64,000 nt of DNA from a virus: positions 1-64,000 of the IMG/VR virus record IMGVR_UViG_3300030102_007485. One strand, given 5' to 3'. Every line of letters starts with the position of its first letter. Position 1 is the stretch's first letter. The notes beneath the pieces are model-generated. The model had not been told where the DNA came from, did not search any database, and saw only the letters and a list, made by a program, of their open reading frames with translations. Below, piece by piece: positions 5,797-23,740 of the stretch. A program made the position numbers and the translations under genes.

Positions 5797-8103
5797 ATGA
5801 TTAAAATAAAAATTTCTCCCGAAGAAAAAATCGGCGGTTGTGGGACGCCACTTGTTGAAGCACGGGTTAAGGATGTTAAGGCAAAATATCCCGAACTAAC
5901 CCAATCCGATTGGATCGACTGGGCACGCAAAAACATTGCTGAAAAGATCAGCGATAAAGCAGTTTCTAAATATCTCCTCTATTGGGCAAAAGCAATGGAC
6001 GTCCAATTCAAAGGCGAAACGGCAGAAGAACTAAAGGGAAGCGATGATGTCATGGAGATTGCCAAAGTCATGCTTGACCTGATTGCCAAGTTTGAAGCAA
6101 ACCAGTCCCGCTTAAAAGAAAAAGATATCTATAAATACGATGTACCAGAACTTGAAAAAGCAATTAAAGATCTTGGTCTTTCATCGCGAGAAAAGAAATC
6201 AAAAGAAAAAGAAAAAGCGATTGAAGGATCCGAAATCGTATATGAAGAAGACGACATGTTTGCTGTCCGACCCTACACCGAAGGTGCTTCATGTTTCTAC
6301 GGAACAAACACCAGATGGTGCATTTCAGCAACACAATCTAGAAACTACTTTGCTCAGTACACCGAGGAAAGAAAAGGTTTCGTCATGGTTAGAATGGAAA
6401 ATTTACCAGAACAAGACGATGATAGAAGGATTGCTTTAGTGTTCGATCAATACGGTGATTTTGATGAGGCATATGATGCCCCCGACAATCAAATGGGATA
6501 TAAAGAAGTCCGCGATGTTATTGCAAGAAACTGGAGCGTTGGTCAAGGACAGGACGATAATTTATATAATAACCTTGAAGACGAAGATCAAGAGATAGTG
6601 CAATCAATTCTGGATAAACTTATGGATGCTGGCAGAGATAACATCCTAGATAACCCACCTGAAGGCGAAAGCATTGAGTCAAAATTAGAAGAATTAGAGC
6701 AAAGGTATGAATCAGAAATAGAACATGCTTATTTTAGTTCTGAGGCATACGATGATAGTTTTTGGTTTAGTGGTGGGTTTGACATTCAATTGGATCCAGA
6801 CAAACTAACAGCAGAACTTGACGACCAAGACTGGCGCGATCTTGCTGATGCTTCCGAAGAGATTCTGTCAAGTCTTGATAGGGAGTTGCAGATATATGCC
6901 TCTGAGGTTGATATCGAAGAAAGCGGCAGAGTCATGATCTCACTGAGCACTGATGAATTCGACCTTACTATTGATAGTTATGAGAATTTCCTGGAAGGAC
7001 TTGCAGAGGCAGACAAAAGATATAAAGGAATCTTAAGACTGATCGCAAAAGAGTTTATGGACCGCGGTTGGATGGGTGGCACCGACTACGACTCATTTAC
7101 TGAACAACTTAGCACCTTAAGTGATAAACTTACTAACTTTACAATCTCTCAAGATTCTGATCTAGGAGAAGAAGAAATTATTTTTAAATCTGAACCTTTT
7201 CGTGTCCCGGACGTTGATTATGGTTTTCTCAGGGACACTTTAAAAAGTGATTTGTCGAATCCAACAGTCAACGATAAAGTGTCAAAAGCAGTATCTGGTT
7301 TGAATAACAAGATCGTTTCTTTACTTAGAAAACAATTGCCCTTGCCAGGAATCCCACAAGCAAAGTTAAAAGAGTTCACTATCCCAGAGATGCTCAAGGT
7401 CAGACTTAAGTTTCATGACGGATCAGTGTGGGCACAAGTAAGATTAACAATTGATGATGTTGAAATTACAAAAGATTCTATAGATATGACTGTAGATGTT
7501 GCCAACTTTATTGACAACAATTTTCAAGAAATTGTAGAAATGGTAGTGAAAGTTGTGCATAGCGAAAGCGAAAATTATGTAAATCAAAACTCTTTAGATG
7601 AAGTAAAAAACAAGATTCGTGCAATGATCGAAGAAAAGATTGCTGCTAAACTTGCTGAGAAGAAAGATGCTTGCTATCATAAAGTAAAGTCAAGATATAA
7701 GGTTTGGCCCAGTGCATATGCCTCTGGCGCTCTAGTGAAGTGCAGAAAGGTCGGTGCTAAGAACTGGGGCAACAAATCCAAGAAAAAGGCAAACGAGTCT
7801 CACTGTACCGACGATGATGACAAAGATTCTGTAGACGAGAAAAGAAAACTAACTAAAAAACCAGGTTCTGAAAGCAATCTTGGGGACTGGTTTAAACGAA
7901 AGGGGGAGAAGGGATCCAAGAGCGGATGGGTTGACTGCAACACTTGTAGAAAAGATAAAAAAACAGGTAGAAAGACCTGCAAGGCATGTGGAAGATCTTC
8001 GGGCGAAAAGAGAGCAAAGTTTCCAAAGTGTCGCCCAACCCCTGGTGCTTGTAGTAAGAAAGGTAACTACGGCAAAAAGTCTAAAGCAGGAAAAAAGGGA
8101 TAG
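5797..8103 (+). CDS. Multidomain protein: PcfJ-like YGxxTxWC domain, acidic core and C-terminal basic Cys modules
   Basis: ASCFYGTNTRWCIS motif; C-terminal DACYHKVKSRYKVWPSAYASG and WVDCNTC modules of the kind seen in T4-like phage hypothetical proteins. Confidence 0.7.
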   Translation: MIKIKISPEEKIGGCGTPLVEARVKDVKAKYPELTQSDWIDWARKNIAEKISDKAVSKYLLYWAKAMDVQFKGETAEELKGSDDVMEIAKVMLDLIAKFEANQSRLKEKDIYKYDVPELEKAIKDLGLSSREKKSKEKEKAIEGSEIVYEEDDMFAVRPYTEGASCFYGTNTRWCISATQSRNYFAQYTEERKGFVMVRMENLPEQDDDRRIALVFDQYGDFDEAYDAPDNQMGYKEVRDVIARNWSVGQGQDDNLYNNLEDEDQEIVQSILDKLMDAGRDNILDNPPEGESIESKLEELEQRYESEIEHAYFSSEAYDDSFWFSGGFDIQLDPDKLTAELDDQDWRDLADASEEILSSLDRELQIYASEVDIEESGRVMISLSTDEFDLTIDSYENFLEGLAEADKRYKGILRLIAKEFMDRGWMGGTDYDSFTEQLSTLSDKLTNFTISQDSDLGEEEIIFKSEPFRVPDVDYGFLRDTLKSDLSNPTVNDKVSKAVSGLNNKIVSLLRKQLPLPGIPQAKLKEFTIPEMLKVRLKFHDGSVWAQVRLTIDDVEITKDSIDMTVDVANFIDNNFQEIVEMVVKVVHSESENYVNQNSLDEVKNKIRAMIEEKIAAKLAEKKDACYHKVKSRYKVWPSAYASGALVKCRKVGAKNWGNKSKKKANESHCTDDDDKDSVDEKRKLTKKPGSESNLGDWFKRKGEKGSKSGWVDCNTCRKDKKTGRKTCKACGRSSGEKRAKFPKCRPTPGACSKKGNYGKKSKAGKKG

Positions 8104-8429
8104 TGAAAATCGTAATAGAAAATCGCAAAAACAAAGTAAACGAAGTGGAATTTAATCTTTCCATGGGCGATACTTCTCCAACAGATAAAGGTATTGACCG
8201 TACTTTTGACAAGATGTTGAGGGGAAAGTATTATGACGCTTATAAGATTTTGTACAATGATGGTGCTGGTTTTTTAGACCAACCCATCCCCAACCTGCTA
8301 AGAAAATACTGGAAGTTTGCAAGAAAATTTAGCAAAATTGATGGTAGGTTCGTGCCTCCACAGGTTTGGTTAGACGACATCAAAAAAGGAGACGCCTCTT
8401 ATTACAGACAATGGAACAGGAGAAATTAA
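8103..8429 (+). CDS. Hypothetical protein with MKIVIEN leader
   Basis: ORF track; leader shared with neighbours. Confidence 0.7.
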   Translation: MKIVIENRKNKVNEVEFNLSMGDTSPTDKGIDRTFDKMLRGKYYDAYKILYNDGAGFLDQPIPNLLRKYWKFARKFSKIDGRFVPPQVWLDDIKKGDASYYRQWNRRN

Positions 8430-8430
8430 C

Positions 8431-8808
8431 ATGAAAATCATAATTGAAAACTCAAAAAATAACAATGAAAAGTATATGCACATATCTGACGGTCTGTATG
8501 AGGATGGAAGTCCTTTGGAAGAGGATTTTGAATTCCATGAACCTATGGACAACAGTGCCATTGAAGAGGCAGAGTACAGAGGCAGAAAGGTTAAACTAAA
8601 CAAACCCATGAGAGGGGATGTTAAAAAGTTTAAAGTATATGTAAAAGATCCAAAGACTGGAAACATCAAAAAGGTCAATTTTGGAGATCCAAACATGAGA
8701 ATAAAGAAATCTAACCCAAAAAGAAGGAAATCTTTCAGGGCAAGACATAATTGTGATAACCCAGGACCAAAAACAAAAGCAAGATACTGGTCCTGTAAAA
8801 AATGGTAA
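8431..8808 (+). CDS. Basic Cys protein (DUF6321-like, ..RRKSFRARHNC..KARYWSCKKW)
   Basis: Recognisable phage/giant-virus module following an acidic leader. Confidence 0.75.
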   Translation: MKIIIENSKNNNEKYMHISDGLYEDGSPLEEDFEFHEPMDNSAIEEAEYRGRKVKLNKPMRGDVKKFKVYVKDPKTGNIKKVNFGDPNMRIKKSNPKRRKSFRARHNCDNPGPKTKARYWSCKKW

Positions 8809-8833
8809 ATCTAATATCTTAAGGAGATTAAAC

Positions 8834-9184
8834 ATGAAAACTACAAAAGAAAAAATCGAAACCCTAATTCAAGAAGAAATTAAAAACTTAATTGAAGAAA
8901 AGGGTTTGACCGACGAAGCAGCAACCAGTATTCCCGGTGCTGCCACCACTGGTAAAAAAATTCCAAAACTTGACAACCTGCATCCAGTTAATTTGAAACA
9001 AATGATTGACAACATTGGAAGTTCGCTTGTTAAGGTAATGTATGACAAACCTGATCAATTAAGCATGGTCACTCTGTTTCAACAAGCGGGCAAGGAAGAT
9101 CTTGCCAAAAAGGCAGCAATGATTCGCGGACAGATTGAAGAGTTGTTGCCTGAGTTATCTGCACTGAAGGCGCTTAAAAAATAA
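8834..9184 (+). CDS. Hypothetical protein with IxxLIxEE leader
   Basis: SD AAGGAG, ATG 8834. Confidence 0.75.
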   Translation: MKTTKEKIETLIQEEIKNLIEEKGLTDEAATSIPGAATTGKKIPKLDNLHPVNLKQMIDNIGSSLVKVMYDKPDQLSMVTLFQQAGKEDLAKKAAMIRGQIEELLPELSALKALKK

Positions 9185-9199
9185 CAGGGGGACTTTAAA

Positions 9200-9517
9200 T
9201 TGAAACTTATACTGGAAGGTTGGAGGAAATTCATAACCGAAAGACATGAACCACTCTATAGTGTGGACGATGAAGTTGCGTATAACGAAAAATATGAAGA
9301 AGTAGACCAACTAATTGCCGCGGCAGAGGAAAAACAAGGCGAATTGGTCAAGATAAAGAATGGAATGTTCGTTATGTTTGATGGTGAACAGTACCTTGTA
9401 TATGACACTCCAACCCCAGCGGACACTGATGACTACAAGGATCTTTACTATTCCGAGGATCGAGACACTTTGTTGCAGGTTGCGATGGCAGATATCACAC
9501 AGGTGGACCTACAATGA
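9200..9517 (+). CDS. Acidic hypothetical protein with MKLILEGWRKF leader
   Basis: TTG start after AGGGGG. Confidence 0.75.
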   Translation: MKLILEGWRKFITERHEPLYSVDDEVAYNEKYEEVDQLIAAAEEKQGELVKIKNGMFVMFDGEQYLVYDTPTPADTDDYKDLYYSEDRDTLLQVAMADITQVDLQ

Positions 9518-9777
9518 GAGGAATGAGAGCAATTTTTGTCTTTTTTGTGCTTTTTGCTCTCTTTTTTTTACTAACTTATGGCACAGTTCTCGCAAAAGAG
9601 AAAACAAAGGTTAAGTTTTACAACTTTGATGACCTTTTGGTTGATGGGAAGGTGTCAAAACCCAAACTTCTTTATGTCGATTCAAGACAGAGGGTAAAAT
9701 TTGAAAAACTTCTTAAATTAAAAAAGGATTTTTTGCCCAAACTAAAAGAAACCGAACGTGATCCAGCACTAAGATGA
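9514..9777 (+). CDS. Secreted small protein resembling the gliding-motility protein CglF/GltF
   Basis: Signal peptide (VLA), then YNFDDLLVDGKVSKP..YVDSRQRVKFEKLLKLKKDF, matching my recollection of the CglF core. Confidence 0.6.
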   Translation: MRGMRAIFVFFVLFALFFLLTYGTVLAKEKTKVKFYNFDDLLVDGKVSKPKLLYVDSRQRVKFEKLLKLKKDFLPKLKETERDPALR

Positions 9778-10169
9778 CCATGCTTAAGATATTAATCCAA
9801 CCAAAAGACTCCAAAACTGTTTGCAAAGCGATTATCGTTGATAAAAAAGGCAGAGTTTTGCTGCTGAAACGCACTGAGTACATGAAAAAGTTTGCAAATA
9901 CTTGGGATTTGCCTGGTGGGCATGTACATGTTGGAGAATCCAACGTCGATGGGTTGCGAAGAGAAGTCAAAGAAGAGACTGATCTTGATTTGTCTGATGT
10001 AAAATTTGCCAAAACTGTAGATGGTAGGCACTTTTTTCTATGTAAAGTGGACAAATTTGACATAAAATTAAGCAATGAACACTCTGAATACCTATTTAGA
10101 GAAGTAGAAGAGTTGGATGTTCGTAACAAATTCGAAAAAATAGCGCAGGAGATACTAAAAAATGGATAA
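9774..10169 (+). CDS. NUDIX hydrolase
   Basis: Nudix box GGHVHVGESNVDGLRREVKEETD. Confidence 0.9.
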   Translation: MTMLKILIQPKDSKTVCKAIIVDKKGRVLLLKRTEYMKKFANTWDLPGGHVHVGESNVDGLRREVKEETDLDLSDVKFAKTVDGRHFFLCKVDKFDIKLSNEHSEYLFREVEELDVRNKFEKIAQEILKNG

Positions 10170-10452
10170 AGAACTACTAAAGCAGGTCATTTTAGAGACC
10201 CTCAAAGAAGAACTCGGTGCTCAACCCGAGGAGGCACCTGAAGAAGAGGGTGCTGGCATCACTACTAGTGAAATGAGGGAAGAATTGATCTCTTTGGCAA
10301 AAGATTCTAGAACTATTAGTTCTATTGCTGCTCCAGAAAGGCAGGTTATTGTTGCTGCAATCAAGGAAATGATGCAGTTGGCAGTGCAAAAAAACATTAC
10401 CAGCGGAAACGTTGCGACTTTATTAAACAAACTTTTCGCATTGAATAACTAG
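10162..10452 (+). CDS. Hypothetical protein with LKQVILE leader
   Basis: ORF track. Confidence 0.7.
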   Translation: MDKELLKQVILETLKEELGAQPEEAPEEEGAGITTSEMREELISLAKDSRTISSIAAPERQVIVAAIKEMMQLAVQKNITSGNVATLLNKLFALNN

Positions 10453-10463
10453 GAGAAAAACAA

Positions 10464-10967
10464 ATGTCAATAGGATCAGAATTTCATACACCTCAAAGTT
10501 GGGGAAAAACCCGCAGACCAAAAGCACTCAAAAGAGCTGGAGCAATTGCTGAGAAAGAGGCAGCAAGTGAGGTTGTACTCCTGAACGCTTCGCAATTAAG
10601 CGGTAGTATCGACTCTACGACCGGTGCTGGATATAACGGATATGCAACGGAAAACCAAAGATTTCTACACTTGCAAATTGAGAATAACGGTACCGGGGAT
10701 CACGTAAAGTTGTATGCTTACAATTATGCTTTTGGTTCTTGGTCGGAACTTTACTTGCCTTATGGTGCCGCTACTCAGTTGGATACTGGAGATGGAGACG
10801 GCGGTGCCCAAACAACTAATGACGTTTGGGTTGAAGCAAAATGGACATCAAAAAATGGAAAATTTATGGTAACCGTCCCTATTCACGGTATAGATCGTAT
10901 CGGTTTTGTGCACGATGGCACCAAAGGTAATGATCTCAAAGTCCGTGCTGCTTGTTCAAGTTTTTAA
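10464..10967 (+). CDS. Hypothetical beta-rich protein, possibly structural
   Basis: SD AGGAG; Gly/Thr-rich. Confidence 0.7.
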   Translation: MSIGSEFHTPQSWGKTRRPKALKRAGAIAEKEAASEVVLLNASQLSGSIDSTTGAGYNGYATENQRFLHLQIENNGTGDHVKLYAYNYAFGSWSELYLPYGAATQLDTGDGDGGAQTTNDVWVEAKWTSKNGKFMVTVPIHGIDRIGFVHDGTKGNDLKVRAACSSF

Positions 10968-10992
10968 AATTTCAAAGAACAAATGATATAAT
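10964..10992 (+). promoter_or_regulatory. Sigma70-type promoter
   Basis: TTAAAA, 17 bp, TG-n-TATAAT 10987-10992. Confidence 0.55.
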
Positions 10993-11025
10993 AACATTAT
11001 ATGATATAAAAGTCAAGGAGAAATA

Positions 11026-11256
11026 ATGTTAACCACTCAATTTTTTGTTTTCGGCATGTTGACCGGTGCAATTATTTGTGCTGGCACATTCTGGATCTGC
11101 CTGAACTACCTCAACCAATTCAAAACCCGAAGAACATTCCACATCGAACTTGAATCACCTAAAGAATATCACAGAGGTTTGCTTCGTGTCAAGGAAATAA
11201 TCAATAAAAATGAAAATTTAGGCAATAAAGCGTTTGGATCTTTTAAAAAGAAATAA
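11026..11256 (+). CDS. Single-TM membrane protein
   Basis: SD AAGGAG; hydrophobic N-terminus. Confidence 0.7.
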   Translation: MLTTQFFVFGMLTGAIICAGTFWICLNYLNQFKTRRTFHIELESPKEYHRGLLRVKEIINKNENLGNKAFGSFKKK

Positions 11257-11262
11257 AAGTAC

Positions 11263-11291
11263 TTTACAACTCTAAAAAAATATGCTATGCT
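11263..11291 (+). promoter_or_regulatory. Sigma70-type promoter
   Basis: TTTACA, 17 bp, TG-n-TATGCT. Confidence 0.55.
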
Positions 11292-11357
11292 AAAGAAGTT
11301 ATACGCTTTTACTTCTAAACTTTTAAATTTATTAGTATGTATTAATATTTAAAATAG

Positions 11358-11840
11358 ATGACTATTTTCAAAACAGGATCAGGTCAGAATGCTTCTCTTG
11401 AAGAGATAGAAAGTATCTGTAAAGATTATGTTTCGAAAGGTGCTAGAATATTTATTGGTACTGATTCATTTATGAGCAAGAAAAAAGTTTGCTTTGCTAC
11501 CGTTATTTGTCTACACGGAAACGGAAACAAAGGAAAATATTTCTTTTTAAGAGATGTCATACCCATAACGCACTATAAGGTGTTAGTTAATAGAATAACT
11601 GAAGAAGTCAGAAGATCTATTGAATGGGCAGACAAAATAAGAGAAGACTTCAAAATCCCTCAAAATAGCATAGAAGTACATATCGACGCCTCACCAGTTG
11701 AGGCAAAAATGAAAACTTCTAGGTTTATTGAAATGCTCCAGGGTTATGTTGCTGGTGCTGGGTTTGCTTATAAGATCAAACCTAATGCCTGGGCAAGTCA
11801 GACTGTTGCGGACAAACACTCTAAATCAGTAAGAATTTGA
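11358..11840 (+). CDS. RNase H-like YkuK/DUF458 family protein
   Basis: IFIGTDS, EVRRSIE, EVHID and IKPNAWASQTVADKHSK motifs. Confidence 0.85.
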   Translation: MTIFKTGSGQNASLEEIESICKDYVSKGARIFIGTDSFMSKKKVCFATVICLHGNGNKGKYFFLRDVIPITHYKVLVNRITEEVRRSIEWADKIREDFKIPQNSIEVHIDASPVEAKMKTSRFIEMLQGYVAGAGFAYKIKPNAWASQTVADKHSKSVRI

Positions 11841-11841
11841 C

Positions 11842-12156
11842 ATGAATAGTAGAATTGATGGTTATTCTATCTCCAGAGATGATCTAGTGGAGAGTTATGT
11901 TAGGAAACACTACGATCTTGGCACGATTATTGTAATGTTTAACGTACAAAACCACCTAGATTATCTTAAACAAAAAGGTTTTACAATACATAATACATAT
12001 GTGTGGGATAACGAGATAATGATCTTTGAATTTCGAGACGTCGAGGAAGCAAAATTTATATTAGACTATGTATCTGGTGAGGACTGTCCTTTCACTCAGG
12101 TCTGGAGTCATGGTAAGTTAATATGCGACAATCTTGATCGACTTGCAAAATCTTAG
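11842..12156 (+). CDS. Hypothetical protein
   Basis: ORF track. Confidence 0.65.
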   Translation: MNSRIDGYSISRDDLVESYVRKHYDLGTIIVMFNVQNHLDYLKQKGFTIHNTYVWDNEIMIFEFRDVEEAKFILDYVSGEDCPFTQVWSHGKLICDNLDRLAKS

Positions 12157-12180
12157 ACTATTTATAATTGGAGAAAGATT

Positions 12181-13014
12181 ATGGAATCATACAGCAAAAA
12201 GTGGAACACGTTTATAAAGGAAGGTGGGTTTGACCCCTCTAAATTTATCATACAGAAGACTTTAAATGCCAAAATTTGGAAAAACGGTGAAATAAAGTCA
12301 GATGTACAAAGTGCATTGATGGAGATTGCCAAGGAATTTTACGAACATCTTTCAAAAGAGGTGGACGACATACCAGAACTAGAAGATGTAATATTCACAG
12401 GTTCTGTTGCAAGTTATAATTACCACGATTTGTCAGACATAGATTTGCATCTAATTTTGGACTTTTCAAAGTTCAAGAAAAATCCTGAACTCTTAGAGAA
12501 ATATTTCACTGCAAAAAGAATTAATTGGAATAAGGTTCACAACATAATGGTAAATGGTCATGAGGTTGAGATTTATATTCAAGATGCAAACGAAGATCAC
12601 ATGGCAAGTGGGATATATTCTTTGCAAGACGATGAGTGGATAAAGAAACCTAAAAGAGAAGAGGTTTCGATTGATTTTGAAACAGCAAAGAAGAAATACA
12701 ATTCCTTGTCAAATGAGATTGCAGAATTGCAAAAAATGTTTTATGATGGTGAATATAGAAAGGTACATGATCATACAATTAAACTTAAAGATAAGATTAA
12801 GAAAATGAGGACCTCGGGATTGAGAGACGAGGGGATATATTCTAGTGAAAACTTGGCGTTTAAGATGCTGAGAATTAATTTAGATTTAGAGAGACTAAGT
12901 TCTCTTAAGACAGATTCTTATGATAGGATGATGTCTGTGACAAATTCTGAAAAAGTCAAGATTAAAGTACAAGAAGTTTGGCGGAACTTCGTGGCAAAAG
13001 GAGAAGTAAAATGA
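12181..13014 (+). CDS. Pol-beta superfamily nucleotidyltransferase
   Basis: TGS...SDIDLH and EVEIY motifs; late motif ACTATTTA at 12157. Confidence 0.85.
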   Translation: MESYSKKWNTFIKEGGFDPSKFIIQKTLNAKIWKNGEIKSDVQSALMEIAKEFYEHLSKEVDDIPELEDVIFTGSVASYNYHDLSDIDLHLILDFSKFKKNPELLEKYFTAKRINWNKVHNIMVNGHEVEIYIQDANEDHMASGIYSLQDDEWIKKPKREEVSIDFETAKKKYNSLSNEIAELQKMFYDGEYRKVHDHTIKLKDKIKKMRTSGLRDEGIYSSENLAFKMLRINLDLERLSSLKTDSYDRMMSVTNSEKVKIKVQEVWRNFVAKGEVK

Positions 13015-13913
13015 TAGACCCAGACACCCCATACGGTGTTGTAGATAACGACACAGGAGAGGTTGTTTATAAGACAACTTATAAAAATAGAAATAAAGCA
13101 CGTTCGATAAAAGACAAAAAAGATCTAAAGCACGGTAAAGTTAAGTACAGTGTAAAAGTTTTGGAGGAAGAGAGCATGAGAGAAGGATCAATGAAAAAGA
13201 CCAGTCGCTTCAAGGAAGGAGACAAAGTCGAGCACAAAGAAGAGAAACGCGGCGTAGGCACTGTTGTTTCTAGGTCTGGTGATACTGTGGGTGTTAGATG
13301 GCCATCGGGTCAAGAGTCTCATAACCATGGTATGCTTAGAAAGACTGGTGTGAAGGAGGGTCATGAAGATTCATTTTCTTATTACGATGATGAAGAGGAA
13401 CCCTACGACTATGATGGGGGAGAACCCTATGACTATGATGGTGATGAAGATGATTTAGATTACGAGTTGCGTGATAGGATGCGCGCCATCAAGGCAAAAG
13501 AAAAGGAAGAAAGAGAGAAAAAATCTGTCAAAGAAGTCAATAAAGGGCAAAAAAAGGAACTTAAAAAGATTTCTAAGGAACTTGCCAATGCATCTAAGAT
13601 GCACAAGGGGCAATCTGACAGAATCTCAGATCTTTTAGACAAGGACGACGAAAAAGAGGACATTGAAGAAGGCAAGGCAAAAAATTGCGGATGTGGACAA
13701 GATCCTTGCGTCACATATGGCATTGCTGAAGAGTTGGAAAACCCTGAGAAGGCAGACCTTGACAAGGACGGAGAACTAAGTTCTTACGAAAAAAAGAGAG
13801 GCAAAGCGATTGAGAAATCGATGAAAAAACAAAAAGGTCTAAAAGAAAAACTTTATGAGTCAAGAGACACCAAGTTGTTTCAGAAGTTACTTAAAAAGTG
13901 GACAAAGAAATAA
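13011..13913 (+). CDS. Modular charged protein (SH3-like, Tyr/Asp repeat, CGCGQDPC, EF-hand-like DLDKDGELSSYE, LLKKWT tail)
   Basis: ATG 13011 overlaps the upstream TGA; motifs visible in the translation. Confidence 0.75.
   Translation: MIDPDTPYGVVDNDTGEVVYKTTYKNRNKARSIKDKKDLKHGKVKYSVKVLEEESMREGSMKKTSRFKEGDKVEHKEEKRGVGTVVSRSGDTVGVRWPSGQESHNHGMLRKTGVKEGHEDSFSYYDDEEEPYDYDGGEPYDYDGDEDDLDYELRDRMRAIKAKEKEEREKKSVKEVNKGQKKELKKISKELANASKMHKGQSDRISDLLDKDDEKEDIEEGKAKNCGCGQDPCVTYGIAEELENPEKADLDKDGELSSYEKKRGKAIEKSMKKQKGLKEKLYESRDTKLFQKLLKKWTKK
13398..13442 (+). repeat. 24-bp tandem duplication encoding EPYDYDG twice
   Basis: GAACCCTA(C/T)GACTATGATGG at 13398 and 13422. Confidence 0.85.
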
Positions 13914-14251
13914 AAACAAGATATAAAGCAAAATTGATCCGGGTTGTCGATGGAGACACTATCGACGCCCAGATTGATTTGGGTTTCGATATCTTTGTTA
14001 ATAAAAGAATACGTTTATGGGGAATTAATGCCCCTGAGACGCGTTCAAAGGACAAGGATGAGGTTAGTGCTGGAAAGAAGACTTTGATGCGTCTAGCGTC
14101 CATTCTCGCCCTCTCAGGTGGAGAGTTTGAGGTAATCACTCACGGTGATGGCAAGTATGGTCGGTGTTTGGGCGAAATATACGTGGAAGACTTCCAAGAA
14201 AGTGTAAATCAACTACTAATCAATGAAGGTCTAGCAAAGGAATATATATAA
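13898..14251 (+). CDS. Thermonuclease (SNase-like)
   Basis: RVVDGDTI, RIRLWGINAPE and GKYGRCL motifs. Confidence 0.9.
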   Translation: MDKEIKTRYKAKLIRVVDGDTIDAQIDLGFDIFVNKRIRLWGINAPETRSKDKDEVSAGKKTLMRLASILALSGGEFEVITHGDGKYGRCLGEIYVEDFQESVNQLLINEGLAKEYI

Positions 14252-14592
14252 TGAAAAAGATTGTTGAAAATTTTCGTAAATTCGCAGATTCGGGTGATGA
14301 AATTGATAAATTGGTTGCGAAATACTATTCTGACCTGAGTGATGACGCCCGTCAGGAGAAGGTAGACTTTTTCAAGAAAAGGATGAAAGCGTCAGTTCGG
14401 ACCAATGGAGAATGGATTCGCAAAACTATGCTTCATTCTTTTGAGCAAAAAATGAAAGCAGAACGGCAAAGAAGAGAAAGGACACCAGAAGAGACCGCCG
14501 CAGCAAAGGCAGCATCAGAAAAATCAAAATTAAAATCAGATGAAAGAGAAAGGGAGATGAGAAGAAAGTACGGCAGAAGGTGGAATAAGTAA
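14251..14592 (+). CDS. Basic hypothetical protein with MKKIVENFRKF leader
   Basis: ORF track. Confidence 0.7.
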   Translation: MKKIVENFRKFADSGDEIDKLVAKYYSDLSDDARQEKVDFFKKRMKASVRTNGEWIRKTMLHSFEQKMKAERQRRERTPEETAAAKAASEKSKLKSDEREREMRRKYGRRWNK

Positions 14593-14962: not shown

Positions 14963-14993
14963 CAATCTACATTAACAAAGGAAGATAAAAAAC

Positions 14994-15995: not shown

Positions 15996-16033
15996 AAGTT
16001 TTGTTGTTTTGATTCGATATACCTATTTATTGT

Positions 16034-16531
16034 ATGGATTTACACAAACTACAAGACTTAACTGAAGAGTTTCTTCGCTTCTTTGCTGAACAGAGGCAAA
16101 TCAATCTTGATGACATGCCACAGGTAAATTTTGTCATGGATGAAAAGTTTGCAAACGATCCCTTCGGAATGACTGGGTATTACAATCCTGAAAACTCAGA
16201 AATTTACGCATTCGTTCCAGGGCGTCACTATAAAGACATTATGAGAACTGTCGCGCATGAGTGCATACATCATGTGCAAAATCTACGCGGTGATCTTTCG
16301 GAAATGGGAGACATGGGGGAAGGTTATGCACAAAATAACCAAAAGATGAGAGAGATGGAGAAAGAGGCGTACCTTGAGGGGAATATGCTTTTTCGAGATT
16401 GGACCGACACGCGCAAAGAAGGATACAAAAAAAAGAAGTTGATGAAAGAAAATCGCGACTTGCAACCTACAAGCAAGAGTGAAGTTTTGTACAAAAGACT
16501 TTTGAAAAAATGGACGAGACACGACCGATGA
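16034..16531 (+). CDS. Zincin-like metallopeptidase with LLKKWT tail
   Basis: RTVAHECIHH..Q followed by EKEAY. Confidence 0.75.
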   Translation: MDLHKLQDLTEEFLRFFAEQRQINLDDMPQVNFVMDEKFANDPFGMTGYYNPENSEIYAFVPGRHYKDIMRTVAHECIHHVQNLRGDLSEMGDMGEGYAQNNQKMREMEKEAYLEGNMLFRDWTDTRKEGYKKKKLMKENRDLQPTSKSEVLYKRLLKKWTRHDR

Positions 16532-16779: not shown

Positions 16780-16783
16780 AAAC

Positions 16784-18886
16784 ATGAGTGGTCTCGGTGG
16801 TCACATGCCTCATATTCATGAGGATTATAATCTTACTTTTTTTCAACTAAAAAAAATCTTAAAGGAATTATCAAACGGTAATACGACCGGAACTGAAAAG
16901 TTAGACGGTCAAAATTTATATATCTCGTACTCTCTTTCTGAGGGTTGTGCCAAGGCGGCACGAAATAAGACAAACATCAAAGACGGCGGTTTAAATTCTG
17001 CTGAACTAGCAAGTAAATTTTTTGGACGTGGAGACCTAGAGTCATCTTTCAACGATGCTTTTGCTCGCTTTGAAGAAGTGGTTTCAAAAATGTCTGACGA
17101 TGAAAAGCGCACTGTCTTTGGAGAAAGTGCTGACATTTACTATAATGTAGAAATAATTGATCCACGAACTCAAAACATCATTGAATATAACACGACTGCA
17201 ATGGTGATCCACCGCTCTAATCACATTTGTGTTAACGGTAAGCATAATTTCAATAAACTAGAAGAGATTTTAAATAGAGTCAATTCCTTCGATCACAAGG
17301 TGGTGACAAACCCAATCAGAAAAATTGGACCACTATCTGAGTCGAAGACTGTGGAGTATCTTTCCCGAATTGACGCTGCCTATCAAGAGGTTGGGTTAAA
17401 GGAGACTTCCACAATCGCTGAATATCTTGTGCACAAGTGTTTGCCTAAAGTTATGGAATTGGGTTTGTCTAAAGAGAAAAATTCTTCAATCTTGAAGAGA
17501 CTTGTTACGAGAAAGTTCCCAAACCTAAATGAAATTAAAAAAGGACTCACTGCCGAACAGAAAAAGTCAGTATCTAAGTTGATCAATGACAAATCCACTG
17601 TACGAGATGCTATGTTTGTCGTCGAGAGCGTACTGCACGATTTCTCAGTTTCATTATTGTCTACCTTTACTAGCGGTTACTCGAACAACACAGGCGGCAA
17701 AGGACTATATGAAAGGTTTGTGACCGCCAAGTCCAAGATTGAAACAAGTGAGTATGATAAGGCAAGAAGTATCTTAAAACTTAACATGTCTAAGATTTCT
17801 CAATTAGAGGACGTAATTTTCGAGACTGAGGGTTTTGTCTTCAATAGTGGCGACATGGTGTACAAGATCACTGGCAACTTTGCTCCAGTTAATCAGATTT
17901 TAGGATTGTTTACATTTGGTCGCGGTGAGGTGCCACCACTTAGGGAGGTGGAGGAGAAGGAAGAGGATCCCAAACCAGAGGTACCCAGTCAAAAGATTGC
18001 TGTATTTCCAGGTGCTTTTAAACCACCGCACATGGGTCACCTCAAGGTGGTTGATCATTTCCTTGAGGACAAAAATGTGGACAAGGTGGTGGTCTTAATT
18101 TCAGATCCTAGTTCAAGGCAATCACAAAGGTCCATATCTCCTGCTAGAGATATCACCGCAAATGACTCCAAAGAGATTTGGGAGAAGATGACATCTGGTC
18201 GAAGCGGCATTGAGATCGTAGTTTCATCAGCACCCAGTCCAGTGTCCTCGACCTTTGAGTACATCGGAGAAGATGGATCAGCGCCAAAAAACGCAACCAT
18301 TCTTCTCGCATCTAGTGATAAGGACAACGACAGTCGTTTCAGGTCCGTAGAAAGGTATGCTAGAGGCGACTTAGACGTGGTAGTTGATACTATCCCTTCA
18401 ACAAACCATTCGACGTCTTATATGCAAAATTTATCGCAAGATAAGAAGATTTTAAATGATCTGCCTTCCTTGCAGTCAGGAAAGGATCCAAGTTTGTTTC
18501 ACGCTTCAGACATGAGATATCTTATTGGTCTAGCGCAAGAAGGAAATAAGAATGCAACATTTTTGCTTGGGGACTTTTTGCCAGAAAATGTAATTCAGTA
18601 TGTACTAAGACTTTTCTCAGTAGATTTGTCAGAAGATTTTCAGTCAAAGATGAAAAAGAGGTTGTCTAAGTCGCATGTGGATCTTTTAGATCAGGGGGGT
18701 CAACCAAATTCTTCGCCCTATAACCAAAAGCGACCAAAAGACAAATCTAACGCTTTTTTGGCAAAAGAAGAGGAAGAGTTAGAAGAGATCTCTGCGATGG
18801 GGGCAGGTGCCGTTTCTGGTTATTCTGCTCCGGTTGGACAGAAGAAAAGGAAAAAAAGAAAAAAAAATCCTAATTACAAGGATTGA
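16784..18886 (+). CDS. Fusion of a ligase-like (DUF6267-like) adenylation domain and an HxGH nucleotidyltransferase
   Basis: EKLDG, EGFVF and YKITG motifs, then FPGAFKPPHMGH and HASDMR. Confidence 0.75.
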   Translation: MSGLGGHMPHIHEDYNLTFFQLKKILKELSNGNTTGTEKLDGQNLYISYSLSEGCAKAARNKTNIKDGGLNSAELASKFFGRGDLESSFNDAFARFEEVVSKMSDDEKRTVFGESADIYYNVEIIDPRTQNIIEYNTTAMVIHRSNHICVNGKHNFNKLEEILNRVNSFDHKVVTNPIRKIGPLSESKTVEYLSRIDAAYQEVGLKETSTIAEYLVHKCLPKVMELGLSKEKNSSILKRLVTRKFPNLNEIKKGLTAEQKKSVSKLINDKSTVRDAMFVVESVLHDFSVSLLSTFTSGYSNNTGGKGLYERFVTAKSKIETSEYDKARSILKLNMSKISQLEDVIFETEGFVFNSGDMVYKITGNFAPVNQILGLFTFGRGEVPPLREVEEKEEDPKPEVPSQKIAVFPGAFKPPHMGHLKVVDHFLEDKNVDKVVVLISDPSSRQSQRSISPARDITANDSKEIWEKMTSGRSGIEIVVSSAPSPVSSTFEYIGEDGSAPKNATILLASSDKDNDSRFRSVERYARGDLDVVVDTIPSTNHSTSYMQNLSQDKKILNDLPSLQSGKDPSLFHASDMRYLIGLAQEGNKNATFLLGDFLPENVIQYVLRLFSVDLSEDFQSKMKKRLSKSHVDLLDQGGQPNSSPYNQKRPKDKSNAFLAKEEEELEEISAMGAGAVSGYSAPVGQKKRKKRKKNPNYKD

Positions 18887-18896
18887 GGGTTTAGAC

Positions 18897-19592
18897 ATGA
18901 TTTCTAGAGAAGAGATGCATAAAGAATTTGTACTAAGAGAAAGTATAAAAAAGACAATTAAAAACAAAATAGAGACGAGTTTGAGGGCAAAAAAGACCGA
19001 CCTTATTGAAGAGATTAAATTAAGGTCTGCCATAAACAAGATTCTCAGAGAAGCAGAACAAGACCCAAGTTCAGATCCTCATCCAAATACTGGTATAAAT
19101 TTTTTAAAGGTCCTATTCAAGAATACAAATTTTCTTGCCTCCCTAGAAGAAGCGTATAAGTCCCTAACCACTACAGACGAACAAAGAAAGTCATTTGAGT
19201 CTCACATATTCAAGGGAATAGAGATGACATTTTCTCGACTAGACGACATGGACACAGAAGATATCAAAGAAGAGGTGGACCTAGACATTGCACCAGAAGA
19301 GACTCCAGGGTATGTTGAGAAAAATTCAAAGACTAAAAAAGATGAAGAAAACGATGAGCGCGAAGAGTTTGACATTGTAGGGACAGATGAGACAGGAAGA
19401 AACGTTGCGTTTGAGACATACAAGAAGGTAGAAAAGTCCCTGATAGATCAATATGTGTCTATGGGAGACGATGATGATCGTGCCGCCTTCAAGAAGTATT
19501 TGATGTTAAATTTACAGCATTATTTTGATCAGTGGGAGTCAGAACTATCACCCACTGAACCTTCAGAAGAAGAACAGTTTGACGAAGTTTAG
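18897..19592 (+). CDS. Acidic hypothetical protein
   Basis: ATG 18897 after GAGGG. Confidence 0.7.
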   Translation: MISREEMHKEFVLRESIKKTIKNKIETSLRAKKTDLIEEIKLRSAINKILREAEQDPSSDPHPNTGINFLKVLFKNTNFLASLEEAYKSLTTTDEQRKSFESHIFKGIEMTFSRLDDMDTEDIKEEVDLDIAPEETPGYVEKNSKTKKDEENDEREEFDIVGTDETGRNVAFETYKKVEKSLIDQYVSMGDDDDRAAFKKYLMLNLQHYFDQWESELSPTEPSEEEQFDEV

Positions 19593-19609
19593 TTCGTACG
19601 AAATTCTTT

Positions 19610-19642
19610 AAAAAGAGCAAGTCTTAACTTGCTCTTTTTTTT
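19610..19642. terminator. Bidirectional intrinsic terminator overlapping a promoter
   Basis: AAAAGAGCAAG / CTTGCTCTTTT stem; TTAACT 19624-19629, 17 bp, TG-n-TATAAT 19647-19652. Confidence 0.7.
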
Positions 19643-19658
19643 ATGGTATAATCCTTTT

Positions 19659-20033
19659 ATGAAAAAGCAAGAAGTCTTAAAGCGCCGCCGCGGAAAAAAT
19701 TACTATACATCTTTATCTAAAGATTTAAAAAAAAGTGGTAAGATTGATTCTTTTTTTGAAATTCAATTAGCACAACTAACGATTGAAGACATACTGGCAC
19801 TTAAATTGGAATTGGCAGCAAAGTCTTTTAACGGCAAGTTGTACGGATATCCTGTTATACAAAACATTACAAATATAGTGAGAGAGGCATCAATAAAGTT
19901 TGCACTCTCTGTGACTCCTTCTAAGGGTGAAGCAAGTAATCTGCTTGGTTGTACCTTGGAGGATCTAAACAATTACATAAAAAAGTATCATCTACAAGAA
20001 TTTTGTGAAGCAATAATTACAAAAAGGAATTAA
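19659..20033 (+). CDS. Putative Fis-like HTH protein, leaderless
   Basis: C-terminal SKGEASNLLGCT..L..YIKKY; ATG lies 6 nt after the -10 element. Confidence 0.55.
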   Translation: MKKQEVLKRRRGKNYYTSLSKDLKKSGKIDSFFEIQLAQLTIEDILALKLELAAKSFNGKLYGYPVIQNITNIVREASIKFALSVTPSKGEASNLLGCTLEDLNNYIKKYHLQEFCEAIITKRN

Positions 20034-20037
20034 ATAT

Positions 20038-20787
20038 ATGACGATTGACCCCTACAGAACGATATATGTTTTTGATATTGACGGCACATTAACCGAACCA
20101 CGACAAAAAATGACCGAAGATTTTTGCTTCTTGTTCTCGGATTGGTCTCAGACAAGGGAAGTGGTCCTTGCAACAGGAAGTGATTATCAGAAAGTAAAGC
20201 AACAATTACCTTCCAGCATACTTGACCGTTGTCAGTTGGTTTTCTGCTGCATGGGTAATGAAGTGAGAAATTCTGATGGTACGGTAATAGATACAAACTC
20301 CTTTACGTTGTCTGAGGAGATGGAAAATGACTTGAAAAATTTTTTGGTCAATTCTTCATACGCTGAAAAAGTGGGACGCCACATTGAATATCGCACCGGC
20401 ATGGTCAACTTTTCTGTAGTCGGCAGAAATGCTAGTCTTGAGCAACGCAAGCGATACAATTTGTGGGACAAAGTAAATCAGGAAAGAATGTCTATAGCGG
20501 AGGCAATAAATTCAAAATACCCTGAAATCGACGCAACCGTCGGAGGATCAATAAGTATTGACATCATAAAAAAAGGGGCAGACAAAGGACAGGTGGTAAA
20601 ATACCTGCAAGATCTTAAGGTTGAAAGACTTGTTTTTGTCGGTGATCGTTGCTATCCTGGAGGAAACGACTTTGGTATTGTAAGAGAGTTAGAGGTTAGT
20701 AGTTTAGTGTATGAGTGGTTTAATGTAGAAAGTCCCAAGGGAACTATTGATTTGATTTTAAATAATTCTGCATTTAAAAGATTTTAG
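20038..20787 (+). CDS. Eukaryote-type phosphomannomutase (HAD-IIB)
   Basis: FDIDGTLT, IEYRTGMVNFS, GGSISID and GDRCYPGGND motifs. Confidence 0.9.
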   Translation: MTIDPYRTIYVFDIDGTLTEPRQKMTEDFCFLFSDWSQTREVVLATGSDYQKVKQQLPSSILDRCQLVFCCMGNEVRNSDGTVIDTNSFTLSEEMENDLKNFLVNSSYAEKVGRHIEYRTGMVNFSVVGRNASLEQRKRYNLWDKVNQERMSIAEAINSKYPEIDATVGGSISIDIIKKGADKGQVVKYLQDLKVERLVFVGDRCYPGGNDFGIVRELEVSSLVYEWFNVESPKGTIDLILNNSAFKRF

Positions 20788-20836
20788 TGTGTCACATAGG
20801 AATTGAGCATAATAATTAAACCGGGAGGTATTAGAT

Positions 20837-20905
20837 ATGAGTGATTCAAAGAAATGCAGTTGTTGCGAGTGTTGCACATGTACTTGTGAAAAGTGCTGCG
20901 AATAA
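20837..20905 (+). CDS. 22-aa metallothionein-like peptide MSDSKKCSCCECCTCTCEKCCE
   Basis: SD GGGAGGT; 9 Cys in 22 aa; late motif AATAATTA at 20811. Confidence 0.65.
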   Translation: MSDSKKCSCCECCTCTCEKCCE

Positions 20906-20911
20906 AGATTT

Positions 20912-21222
<311 letters not shown>

Positions 21223-21245
21223 TTTTTAACATTGGAGACTATTTG

Positions 21246-21428
21246 ATGAAGCATTTAAAACAAAATAATATATCTTATATTAAGCATTTTTTCAGAGGGG
21301 TTGGTTTTGTTTTTTGGTCCTTGAAAATGTTAGGTGTATGTCTTATCCATGCTGTTTTCCCATTTTGGCATGAAGACACCTTTTCCAGAGAAGTTGGTAA
21401 ATTATCATCACGATTAAAAAATTTGTAA
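21246..21428 (+). CDS. DUF6356-like small membrane protein
   Basis: HL....SY..HF...IHAVFPF pattern; SD GGAG. Confidence 0.75.
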   Translation: MKHLKQNNISYIKHFFRGVGFVFWSLKMLGVCLIHAVFPFWHEDTFSREVGKLSSRLKNL

Positions 21429-21504
21429 GTTTGTATCACTTTTTGATTTAGAATCAGGCAGCACCTAGGCAACGTCTTTTATGAACTTGGCAACTATTTA
21501 AACC

Positions 21505-22092
21505 ATGCAGATCTTAATCGAAAAGTGGTCCAAGAAATATAAGAGATCAATTGATTGTAACAATCCAAAAGGTTTTTCTCAAAAAGCACACTGTCAAAGC
21601 AGAAAAAAGAGAGAAAATCTTACCTTAAATCAAATAATTCAAATTATTGATGAAGAAATACAAAATTTTCTAGATGAAAGGTGTCAAAAAGGTTACAAAA
21701 CTCACCCTACAAGAAAAACTAAGAAAATGTTTGGTAGGACTTACAGAAATTGTGTCAAAGCAGATGAAAGTTCTGATCCAAAAAAGGGAACTGGTAAAAA
21801 ACCAAAGGGATCTGGTAGAAGACTTTACACTGATGAAGACCCAAGTGACACTGTGAGTGTTAAGTTTCGAACTGTTTCTGACATAAAAGACACCTTTTCA
21901 AAGTCAAGTTTTAAAAGCAAGTCACATAAAAGACAATCTCAGATTATAAACCTAGTCCATCAGCGAGTTAGGGCAGCATATAATAATGCGAAAGACCCAG
22001 AAACCAAAGCAAGACTCAAGAAAGCACTTGATTATGCTAAGAAAAAGAAAGAGTCTTCAAAAGAGAAGACAAAGAGGATGAATAGAAAATGA
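21505..22092 (+). CDS. Polymodular basic Cys protein
   Basis: Modules KWSKKYKRSIDCNNPKGFSQKAHC, RCQKGY..NCVK and DPKKGTGKKPKGSGRRLYTDE, separated by xxE sites. Confidence 0.75.
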   Translation: MQILIEKWSKKYKRSIDCNNPKGFSQKAHCQSRKKRENLTLNQIIQIIDEEIQNFLDERCQKGYKTHPTRKTKKMFGRTYRNCVKADESSDPKKGTGKKPKGSGRRLYTDEDPSDTVSVKFRTVSDIKDTFSKSSFKSKSHKRQSQIINLVHQRVRAAYNNAKDPETKARLKKALDYAKKKKESSKEKTKRMNRK

Positions 22093-22511
22093 AAAAGATT
22101 ATAATAAAGATTATGAAAAAAGTAAAAGACTATATTTGCCCTCCTGCAACTCAAGATTTGAAACTAAACACTAAAAATCGTGATGCTACAATCAAACAAT
22201 ACAACTATGGTCCACTAAATGTTGATGAACCTGATGATTATTGGAAAGATATTGCAAAATATTGGAAAACTTCAGAGAAGGCAGCAAAGAAATCGAACTG
22301 TGGTAATTGCGTCGCCTTCGACATATCCCCAAGGATGAAAGATTGTATGCCGGGTGATACATTTGATAAGGATGGTCAACTCGGATATTGCTGGATGCAC
22401 CACTTTAAATGCCATTCCGCTAGGTCTTGCCACACTTGGGCGAAGGGTGGACCAATCAAGATAGACGATGAGTCTCATAAGTGGCAAGACAAGAATAAGT
22501 TTGGCAAGTGA
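22089..22511 (+). CDS. Cys/His-rich (HiPIP-like CxNC) phage protein
   Basis: CGNCVAFD..GYC..HFKC..RSC..W.KGG pattern. Confidence 0.75.
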   Translation: MKKIIIKIMKKVKDYICPPATQDLKLNTKNRDATIKQYNYGPLNVDEPDDYWKDIAKYWKTSEKAAKKSNCGNCVAFDISPRMKDCMPGDTFDKDGQLGYCWMHHFKCHSARSCHTWAKGGPIKIDDESHKWQDKNKFGK

Positions 22512-22516
22512 TTTGT

Positions 22517-22900
22517 ATGGCGTATTCAAAACAAGTGATTGATCATTTTGAAAATCCAAGAAATGTAGGTTCTTTTGATAAGGACGACACATCTGTTGGT
22601 ACGGGTATCGTAGGTGCACCTGCTTGTGGAGACGTAATGAAGTTGCAAATAAAGGTGGACGAGAATGGCATAATTCAGGACGCAAAGTTCAAAACATATG
22701 GTTGTGGTTCTGCCATTGCTTCATCTTCTCTTGTCACAGAGTGGATAAAGGGTCGCTCTCTGGATGATGCCCTTATGATTAAAAATGTGGAAATAGCAAA
22801 TCATCTTTCCCTCCCCCCAGTCAAGATTCATTGCTCTGTTTTAGCGGAGGATGCAATAAAGTCTGCAATTGAAGACTACAAATCAAAATTAACAAACTAA
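22517..22900 (+). CDS. iscU: Fe-S cluster scaffold IscU
   Basis: YS..VIDHFENPRNVG, APACGD, GCGSAIASSS and LPPVKIHCS motifs. Confidence 0.95.
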   Translation: MAYSKQVIDHFENPRNVGSFDKDDTSVGTGIVGAPACGDVMKLQIKVDENGIIQDAKFKTYGCGSAIASSSLVTEWIKGRSLDDALMIKNVEIANHLSLPPVKIHCSVLAEDAIKSAIEDYKSKLTN

Positions 22901-22939
22901 TTAAGTTAAAAATTATTGTTTTTATAGGGAGATTAATCG

Positions 22940-23740
22940 ATGAAGTTATTGATGGAACAGTGGAGAGTGTACCAAGAACAGGTAAAGGAAGACGATAAAT
23001 TTAATCACCTTCTTACAGAAATATTAAATTCAAAAGAGGAAAAACAGATTGATGCTTTGATCTCCGAGTGGATTAGCGAGCAAGAGCAAATTTTAAATGA
23101 AATTGATTTTAAAGGCGCAATTGCGAAGGGTATGGAGTTTATAAGTAGAAAAGTCAACGAGGTGCTTTTAAGAGTGTACTTTAAGGCGGTTGATATTGTG
23201 GGCAACAGGATATCTGCCATAGGGCAAAAACATCCTGTACTTGCAAGGGTTGGTACAGTTGCGCTGATAACTGTCTGTATGTTGTGTGCTTCCGCTATCG
23301 CAAACACTGCAATGGCATCTGGTGCAGAAGGAAACCCAGAACTCGACAAATATGTAGACATGTTACAGGGAATTATGACCGATAAGATAACTGACCTAGG
23401 ACAGTACGGCGCTCAAGATTTGTTAAAAGATAGTGATCCAGAGATAAAGGCAAAATTGGCAGATGCGATAAACCACTTGGAAGGAATGAAGGGGTCTCTA
23501 AACAGTCTTGCTGATTTGAAAAAGGTTGACGGTGAAATTGGAAAGACAATAAAGACCACCAGTGATTGGATGGTGGACCTCTATCAGAATCCGCCAGAGG
23601 GTATGGATCGAGATTCTGTTAAGACCGCGTTGGAAAACTGGCAACGAGTAGGTGAGCAAATCGAACAGGTTCATTACGAATATAGCGAATACACTTCCGG
23701 TGGTACCACTCGTTCATCTGAAAAGTTCAAGAGCAACTAG
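22940..23740 (+). CDS. Hypothetical protein with MKLLMEQWR leader and an internal TM segment
   Basis: SD GGGAG; late motif at 22896; hydrophobic VGTVALITVCMLCASAIA. Confidence 0.75.
   Translation: MKLLMEQWRVYQEQVKEDDKFNHLLTEILNSKEEKQIDALISEWISEQEQILNEIDFKGAIAKGMEFISRKVNEVLLRVYFKAVDIVGNRISAIGQKHPVLARVGTVALITVCMLCASAIANTAMASGAEGNPELDKYVDMLQGIMTDKITDLGQYGAQDLLKDSDPEIKAKLADAINHLEGMKGSLNSLADLKKVDGEIGKTIKTTSDWMVDLYQNPPEGMDRDSVKTALENWQRVGEQIEQVHYEYSEYTSGGTTRSSEKFKSN

Follow-up and report, generated by a model that had tools for sequence, protein, structure and literature searches.

Two portable N-terminal leaders on unrelated proteins of marine Far-T4 myoviruses: candidate head-loading signals

The stretch of DNA analyzed here (the window) comprises the first 64 kb (64,000 nucleotides [nt]) of the 77,879-bp viral contig IMGVR_UViG_3300030102_007485, of which the plus strand holds nearly all genes. 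In an earlier note on the window, otherwise unrelated proteins encoded between positions 5797 and 23740 were proposed to share short portable tags of three classes (A, B, and C) that end at glutamates resembling prohead protease sites and together form a code for loading cargo into the head. All strings quoted in that note were indeed present in the genes named. Comparison with loci and genomes of relatives (designated by L and G numbers, respectively) revealed that two of the classes, A and B, recur as leaders on unrelated proteins across a clade of viruses. The class A consensus spans 14 residues, M-K-L-L-x-E-N-W-R-K-F-[LIV]-x-E, from Met1, and the class B consensus spans 22 residues, starting M-K-I-T-K-x-Q-L-K-Q-I-I-K-E-E-L; both contain L/I-x-E, the site of the T4 prohead protease gp21. 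The window shows these leaders in partly degenerate form, and its contig is incomplete.

Well-supported tags were found in the window at genes 9200, 22940, 14251, and 12181 for class A and at 8834, 10162, 21505, and 5797 for class B (genes are named by their first position; Table 1). The tags of the first three genes of each class are robust, and those at 12181 and 5797 are degenerate. N termini were scored on a class A profile built iteratively from ~300 tags of related contigs, with reversed peptides as the null (≥14 bits in 5 of 23,282 N termini), and on a profile of the class B core, for which shuffled proteomes gave 0.2 matches of ≥8 bits. The pattern [ILVM][ILVM]E.[WF][RS] matched four times in the 24,710-amino-acid (aa) proteome of the contig, every time at residue 4 of its protein. 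None of the metabolic, glycan-cluster, or tail proteins of the contig scored on the profiles, with the exception of two marginal internal matches. The leader of 12181 gave no score on the class A profile; because it aligned in register with canonical A-tagged orthologues, its N terminus represents a decayed tag. In an AlphaFold2 (AF2) model of this protein, residues 1 to 16 (predicted local distance difference test score of <50) form a helix detached from a fold that begins near residue 20, and this would fit an exposed, removable peptide; fold searches returned nucleotidyltransferase matches, which were weak. The confidence of the AF2 model of the 22940 protein was too low for use.

Several other members of the proposed classes did not stand. 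On the class A profile, the start of 8103 was borderline (10.1 bits), and the starts of 8431 and 21505 did not score. These MKIVIEN-type starts and the C-terminal W-R-N-F of 12181 belong to another module and not to class A. This separate, recurring module consists of an I-K-I-type strand followed by E-x-W (E-K-W) and was seen at 12940 to 13014, 21505 to 21600, 8103 to 8125, 8431 to 8453, and 5797 to 5815; it lies at N termini, and at the C terminus in the 12181 family, and in some relatives it runs into a C-x-N-P-K-G-F domain. Of the proposed class B genes, 8834, 10162, and 21505 were retrieved by profile, and 5797 was retained as a degenerate member, since its B-like string occupies the position where relatives bear a B-type leader or helix ahead of the same basic domain (a PHROG 727 match in this protein covers residues 604 to 667). 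Gene 18897 did not score, and its orthologues have 50 to 60 helical residues ahead of a conserved P-D-V-D-P-T-P-N-K domain. We consider it unlikely that coincidence among short helical or strand-like N termini accounts for the listing of 8103, 8431, and 18897, even though none of the three rose above background when scored with the clade profiles and an M-K-I-h-I-E-type start (h, hydrophobic) is also present on an untagged glycosyltransferase-like protein at 31455; for 9200, 22940, 14251, 8834, 10162, and 21505, which scored far above the null, this explanation fails. The figure of more than 12 cargos was too high, and approximately 7 to 9 window genes are well supported.

Table 1. Leaders, related features, and late motifs in the window
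Feature	Coordinates	Strand	Basis or remark
Class A leader, canonical, 14 codons, TTG start, ends I-T-E; 105-aa protein	9200..9241	+	42 bits; only match to the body-independent tag
Class A leader, L-M-E at residues 4 to 6; 266-aa all-helical protein with hydrophobic segment	22940..22981	+	29.6 bits; relaxed DNA pattern match
Class A leader, weaker, W8 replaced by F; 113-aa protein	14251..14292	+	15.1 bits
Class A leader, degenerate, ends I-K-E; Pol-beta-fold nucleotidyltransferase-like protein	12181..12222	+	In-register alignment with canonical A tags of orthologues L231, L050, and L056
Class B leader, canonical, 22 codons, ends L-I-E-E; 116-aa protein	8834..8899	+	N terminus 32.2 bits; core 15.3 bits
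Class B leader, offset by two residues; 96-aa protein	10162..10227	+	Core 20.7 bits at residue 6
Class B helix, internal, between N-terminal Cys module and conserved basic body of 195-aa basic protein 21505..22092	21634..21678	+	Core 20.8 bits at residue 44
B-like helix in 768-aa protein 5797..8103, directly before basic domain K-K-D-A-C-Y-H-K..W-P-S-A-Y-A-S-G	7615..7659	+	Below profile threshold
Helical N-terminal segment of 18897..19592, ends L-R-E; by profile not a class B tag	19020..19052	+	Profile and orthologues
Untagged orthologue; at least six relatives have a canonical class A leader on this family	22089..22511	+	66 to 70% identity to L091, L115, L074, L109, L052, and L097
167-aa protein, homologue of a gene 1.4 kb downstream of the prohead protease gene in the L270 head module	10464..10967	+	37% identity to L270:11650-12057 (gene L270:11629-12060)
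Class C C-terminal helix of 13011..13913	13875..13904	+	Last ~60 residues resemble the C-terminal module of 16034 orthologues
Class C C-terminal helix of metallopeptidase-like 16034..16531	16487..16516	+	Conserved C terminus of the family
Late motif CTAATTA, 11 nt before 5797	5786..5792	+	
Late motif CTATTTA, 70 nt before 10162	10092..10098	+	
Late motif CTATTTA, 23 nt before 12181	12158..12164	+	
Late motif CTATTTA, 11 nt before 16034	16023..16029	+	
Late motif CTAATTA, 27 nt before 18897	18870..18876	+	
Late motif CTATTTA, 11 nt before 21505	21494..21500	+	
Late motif CTAATTA, 43 nt before 22940	22897..22903	+	

Class A is a real, virus-specific, portable leader that is conserved at the peptide level. 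A back-translated DNA pattern for M-K-h-h-h-E-x-W-R-K-F was found at no fewer than 120 IMG/VR loci, several of which held 2 to 4 copies, and a control pattern with one hydrophobic residue fewer was found at none. In 596 Gb of prokaryote genomes the pattern matched twice, one match being in a metagenome-assembled genome (MAG) that holds phage contigs. This MAG, labelled Candidatus Pelagibacter sp. TMED166 (L122, NHHP01000006.1; assembly G090), carries, besides the class A tag, close homologues of IscU and ClpP of the window and two gp21-type protease genes, and phage contigs were therefore binned within it. Positions 12 and 14 lie outside the search pattern, and among 121 nonredundant class A open reading frames (ORFs) position 14 was Glu in 105 and position 12 was L, I, V, or M in 109; in the clade consensus over A tags, Glu14 reached 84 to 87% and L/I/V at position 12 ~90%. 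On the profile, ~340 N termini scored ≥20 bits, compared to one reversed peptide. Similarity between the sequences ends past residue 14, and the bodies that follow fall into at least 59 clusters unrelated by BLAST, representatives of which include NUDIX, AAA_33/Zeta-toxin kinase, HD, Pkinase, GNAT, pentapeptide, and PGDYG domains.

Among 125 distinct copies of the class A tag, Arg9 was encoded by six codons and Leu3 by six, and most synonymous sites differed while the amino acids were fixed. Because synonymous codons vary freely under a fixed peptide, selection acts on the leader peptide and not on the DNA. This bears on the proposal that the leaders are mainly recombination handles for the exchange of cargo genes as cassettes, with a peptide of little function of its own. 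Such a role would suit the arrangement of tagged genes in tandem arrays with overlapping stops and starts (ten A-tagged genes in tandem in one genome) and the differences in leader among orthologues, yet the codon diversity argues for selection on the peptide; we rejected a DNA-level or recombination-only explanation on these grounds and regard the proposal as highly improbable, although recombination may be a by-product of the leaders. It is also quite improbable that the leaders set the amount or lifetime of a protein, as a degradation signal for a Clp-type protease or as a booster of translation initiation. The contig does encode ClpP, and the leaders are N terminal, begin with M-K, and have A/T-rich codons; however, ClpP homologues were present in few tag-bearing loci and were not found in G004, a complete genome with ten tagged genes, a degradation signal has no need for a conserved L/I-x-E end, and free synonymous variation under a fixed peptide argues against a role at the mRNA level.

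Class B is likewise a real, portable leader across the clade. Its pattern was present at no fewer than 120 IMG/VR loci, and in related loci the helix I/L-x-x-I-I-x-E-E-L was mostly preceded by M-K-I-T-K-x-Q and began exactly seven residues past the start. The 151 distinct class B ORFs (median, 110 aa) have bodies in at least 114 unrelated clusters, and ~470 N termini scored ≥20 bits on the class B profile, compared to one reversed peptide. The leader always has I-K-E at residues 12 to 14. The class B helix is also found internally, between the domains of multidomain basic proteins. Among relatives, small domains that contain Cys and are very basic recur in many shuffled combinations, often with class B helices and stretches of Lys between them (in the window at 7600 to 8100, 8560 to 8808, and 21650 to 22092); examples are W-P-S-A-Y-A-S-G..K-N-W-G, C-W-P-G-Y-E-K-K, and D-P-K-K-G-T-G-K-K-P-K-G-S-G-R-R. 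These domains resemble DNA-associated internal proteins.

The proposal of portable tags that address unrelated proteins to the head was supported in part: its core withstood all tests open to sequence data, but some of the genes listed are untagged in the sense of the clade. The classes are also less separate than a multi-class code implies, and a three-class code was not shown. Orthologues of the basic body of 21505 begin with an A, B, or hybrid leader, so that A and B interchange on one body, and orthologues of 21505, 22089, 12181, and 8431 have A, B, hybrid, or no leaders. Gene 22089 has lost a tag that six orthologues retain.

The contig derives from a marine "Far-T4" myovirus that is uncultured. 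When capsid proteins are compared, Flavobacterium phage immuto (48% identity), Microcystis phage Mel-JY01, and Rhodothermus phage RM378 are the closest phages in culture, and this comparison places the contig in the "Far-T4" branch. Completeness of the contig was 43% according to CheckV, which implies a genome of ~180 kb. Many of its proteins are 40 to 77% identical to proteins of tag-bearing IMG/VR contigs. Two complete genomes of 185 to 187 kb are among the tag-bearing relatives, both with a T4 gp21-type protease, and complete relatives with the protease share 62 to 77% identical proteins with the window. The contig itself has genes for a late sigma factor resembling gp55 and, adjoining those of giant tail proteins, for a gp25-like baseplate protein; ClpP, PhoH, and PurA are also encoded (by gene order and Pfam). 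Megablast of the region against GenBank phages gave one 40-nt chance match and nothing else, tblastn of the tagged proteins and of bare A and B leaders against 50,697 GenBank phage isolates gave no tagged relatives, and most tagged bodies were without a match in Pfam or PHROGs.

Every tag-bearing record that was ≥81% complete has Pfam Peptidase_S77 (T4 gp21 family), and all of these carriers are marine "Far-T4" myoviruses of 145 to 205 kb; fragment sizes and CheckV point to ~180 kb. Per complete genome of ~235 genes, class A is found on 4 to 10 and class B on 4 to 7. Among fragments ≤30% complete, the protease gene was present in 12 of 18 with class B, compared to 3.1 expected (P = 3e-6), and in 2 of 23 with class A, compared to 4.3 expected, i.e., without linkage. 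Twelve head modules of relatives begin with the large terminase, a gp20-type portal, two conserved genes, often an A-like tagged gene, and a small membrane protein, and continue with B-tagged small genes, the protease, more B-tagged genes, a conserved 130- to 144-aa protein with a B-like helix, and, later, scaffold-like and capsid proteins. In the genes of these modules the A-like motif begins 3 to 13 residues in. The conserved protein, encoded shortly downstream of the protease (L270:10901-11332; equivalents in L269, L271, L273, L275, and L278), starts class-B-like with x-x-L-K-K-L-I-K-P-x-V-K-E-C-I-x-E-V-L-I-E-E-G and is by its sequence a candidate for a component of the core, one that the B leaders might mimic or bind. 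The capsid protein of the clade has L-[KR]-E followed by A-S, aligned with the propeptide cleavage site of T4 gp23, and this alignment suggests that L/I-x-E specificity has been kept.

Within these modules, 10 of 12 have a tagged gene within ~1 kb of the protease gene, between portal and scaffold, where T4 has gp67 and gp68, followed by gp21 and gp22. In T4, gp67/gp68 and the propeptides of gp21 and Alt have L/I-x-E cleavage, the genes of gp67 and gp68, both small, lying between those of the portal and the protease, and in relatives B-tagged and A-like-tagged small genes hold that position. Unlike the situation for gp67 and gp68, the tagged genes of the window lie outside any head module, the contig being without one, and no sequence homology to gp67 or gp68 was detected.

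In relatives, the genes for the scaffold and for other structural proteins are preceded by a conserved late-type element, A-C-T-A-T-T-T-A or A-C-T-A-A-T-T-A. The plus strand of the contig holds 11 copies of CTA(A/T)TTA, 10 of which lie 11 to 70 nt before a gene start, and 7 of these 10 genes are among those listed as tagged in the earlier note, in which five had been placed directly behind the motif; those five were recovered and two more added. CTATTTA occurs four times (before 10162, 12181, 16034, and 21505) and CTAATTA seven times (before 5797, 18897, 22940, PhoH, the 3907-aa tail protein, and a baseplate gene and once inside a gene). From this we infer that the motif-preceded tagged genes of the window would be expressed late, alongside head assembly. 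At 5786 to 5799, 16023 to 16036, and 21494 to 21507, the motif starts exactly 11 nt before ATG, without a Shine-Dalgarno sequence, and by this spacing the three genes would yield leaderless or nearly leaderless late mRNAs. Distances from motif to start in relatives peak at 25 to 26 nt, with a second peak at 11 to 12 nt. Sigma-70-like early promoters are found within the first 3.5 kb; between 300 and 3000 of the window, strong ones (T-T-G-A-C-A, 17-nt spacer, T-A-T-A-type box) follow one another ahead of small genes, which probably marks the early region.

These observations can be set against what is known of phage T4. The internal proteins of T4 have N-terminal propeptides of 10 to 19 residues, which direct these proteins to the core and which gp21 cleaves off past L/I-X-E, and the first ten residues of internal protein III (IPIII) suffice for targeting (PMC9026906). 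Removal of the capsid-targeting sequence (CTS) of IPI, IPII, and IPIII by the gp21 prohead protease was reported by Mullaney and Black in 1996 (as reviewed in PMC9026906), and related phages have other, unrelated basic proteins with CTS-like leaders (PMC9026906). T4 IPII and IPIII begin with the identical ten residues MKTYQEFIAE. Like the T4 CTS, class A is N terminal and starts with M-K; Glu occupies position 6, an aromatic residue stands three positions from the end, and the class A consensus closes with L/I-x-E. In both cases the leaders precede unrelated bodies, several of which are small and basic, and a gp21-family protease and a T4-type head module are present in the more complete relatives of the contig. 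In contrast to the 10-residue T4 CTS, the leaders here are of two types, of 14 and 22 residues, class A having four extra residues in the middle; compared to the T4 range of 10 to 19, class A falls within and class B is slightly longer. A further difference is in cargo, which comprises dozens to hundreds of families here, many of them enzyme-like, with 10 or more tagged genes in one genome. Homology to the T4 CTS was rejected, as the clade profiles match no T4 head protein, and functional analogy is therefore claimed instead.

On this analogy, we think it somewhat probable that the leaders are head-loading signals similar to the T4 CTS. Tagged proteins would be made late; the amphipathic leader would let the protein dock on the scaffolding core while the prohead assembles; the gp21-type prohead protease would cut past the L/I-x-E within or at the end of the leader; and the body, freed inside the head, would become a core or internal protein or a cargo that enters the host with the DNA. 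All of these steps, from docking and cleavage after Glu through to packaging and injection, are inferred. A more specific version, which we regard as tentative and rather doubtful, assigns different destinations to the two classes: B would mark proteins of the scaffolding core, encoded beside the protease, and A would mark exchangeable injected cargo from separate arrays, so that capsids are preloaded with a large, fast-changing enzyme kit. This kit would include kinases, NUDIX and HD hydrolases, acetyltransferases, nucleotidyltransferases, and DNA-mimic-like repeat proteins, and the A cargo would act before phage gene expression, e.g., against host defense signaling.

Several findings weigh against head loading. 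In 14251 and 22940, positions 12 to 14 are not L/I-x-E, and the sole such motif is at residues 4 to 6; Glu22 is present in only ~37 to 39% of class B leaders. Head genes and Peptidase_S77 were not found in the sequenced part of the contig, which is 43% complete. The clade profiles gave negative scores for T4 IPII, IPIII, gp67, gp68, and gp21. Clade-wide, the late motif lay directly upstream of 18% of A-tagged genes compared to 10%, a mild enrichment, and B-tagged genes were not enriched; modest enrichment is as expected if tagged arrays share one promoter, and the late motif is therefore no strong evidence beyond the window. Many cargo bodies are ordinary-looking enzymes that could work in the infected cell. 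Lastly, no phage with these tags was found among 50,697 GenBank phage records.

Some of these points, together with others, would suit leaders that are docking helices for a partner other than the prohead (a host hub protein, a chaperone, a membrane surface, or another phage assembly) and that would thus organize unrelated enzymes of the phage within the host rather than the capsid. As amphipathic helices separate from the fold, the tags would fit this role; many of the bodies are enzymes that could plausibly work inside the cell, and class A arrays lie far from the head module and are unlinked to the protease gene. Docking of this kind leaves without explanation the conserved Glu14 and the L/I/V at position 12, the restriction of the leaders to a clade with a gp21-type protease and the tagged genes beside that protease, and the interchange of A and B on one basic, internal-protein-like body, and we consider it rather unlikely. 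Each of the rival explanations accounts for fewer observations than head loading does.

The principle of such a system is known from T-even phages; the two leaders and their scale appear to be undescribed, and full-text literature searches returned no description of either in marine phages. In the giant phages phiKZ, 201phi2-1, and SPN3US, many head-internal proteins have propeptides that are removed after Glu by a gp21-related protease (PMC9026906). The head-loading reading shares with these phages a large protein load delivered with the DNA; their motifs, however, are S/A-x-E, and their propeptides are long, with no single shared short leader. Cargo-loading peptides of encapsulins are short terminal peptides that direct unrelated enzymes inside an HK97-fold shell; they differ from the leaders described here in being mostly C terminal, uncleaved, and nonviral and in binding the shell protein itself.

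If the leaders do load the head, ~5% of the genes in a group of phages widespread in the ocean would encode particle-borne proteins, a load far larger and more enzyme-like than that of T4, with its three internal proteins and Alt, and a location and time of action would be assigned to hundreds of marine "hypothetical proteins," 7 to 9 window genes being candidates for virion-internal proteins. This would point to prepackaged enzymes of counterdefense or takeover and would give an uncultured lineage packaging tags that are natural, short, and defined by their sequence; peptides adjacent to the leader Glu could be searched for in metaproteomes of viral fractions.

Class C, the third of the proposed classes, is present in its two copies, the codons of which differ. 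In its local form it was not found in 1.7 million residues of six-frame ORFs of relatives, and a clade-wide portable tag was rejected for this reason. It is instead the local version of a conserved basic amphipathic C-terminal helix specific to the 16034 family (the Pfam DUF6782 match of the 16034 protein is weak). The homology of 10464 to a head-module gene (Table 1) means that this gene may be a structural paralogue among the tagged genes. A ClpP-family protease is encoded at 24890..25534 (Pfam CLP_protease, 7e-27), away from any head gene, and is present in some relatives only. A phage-encoded transfer-messenger RNA lies at 20912 to 21220, in the middle of the tagged-gene region, and its tag peptide is A-N-D-D-V-E-I-F-E-D-Y-A-L-A-A.

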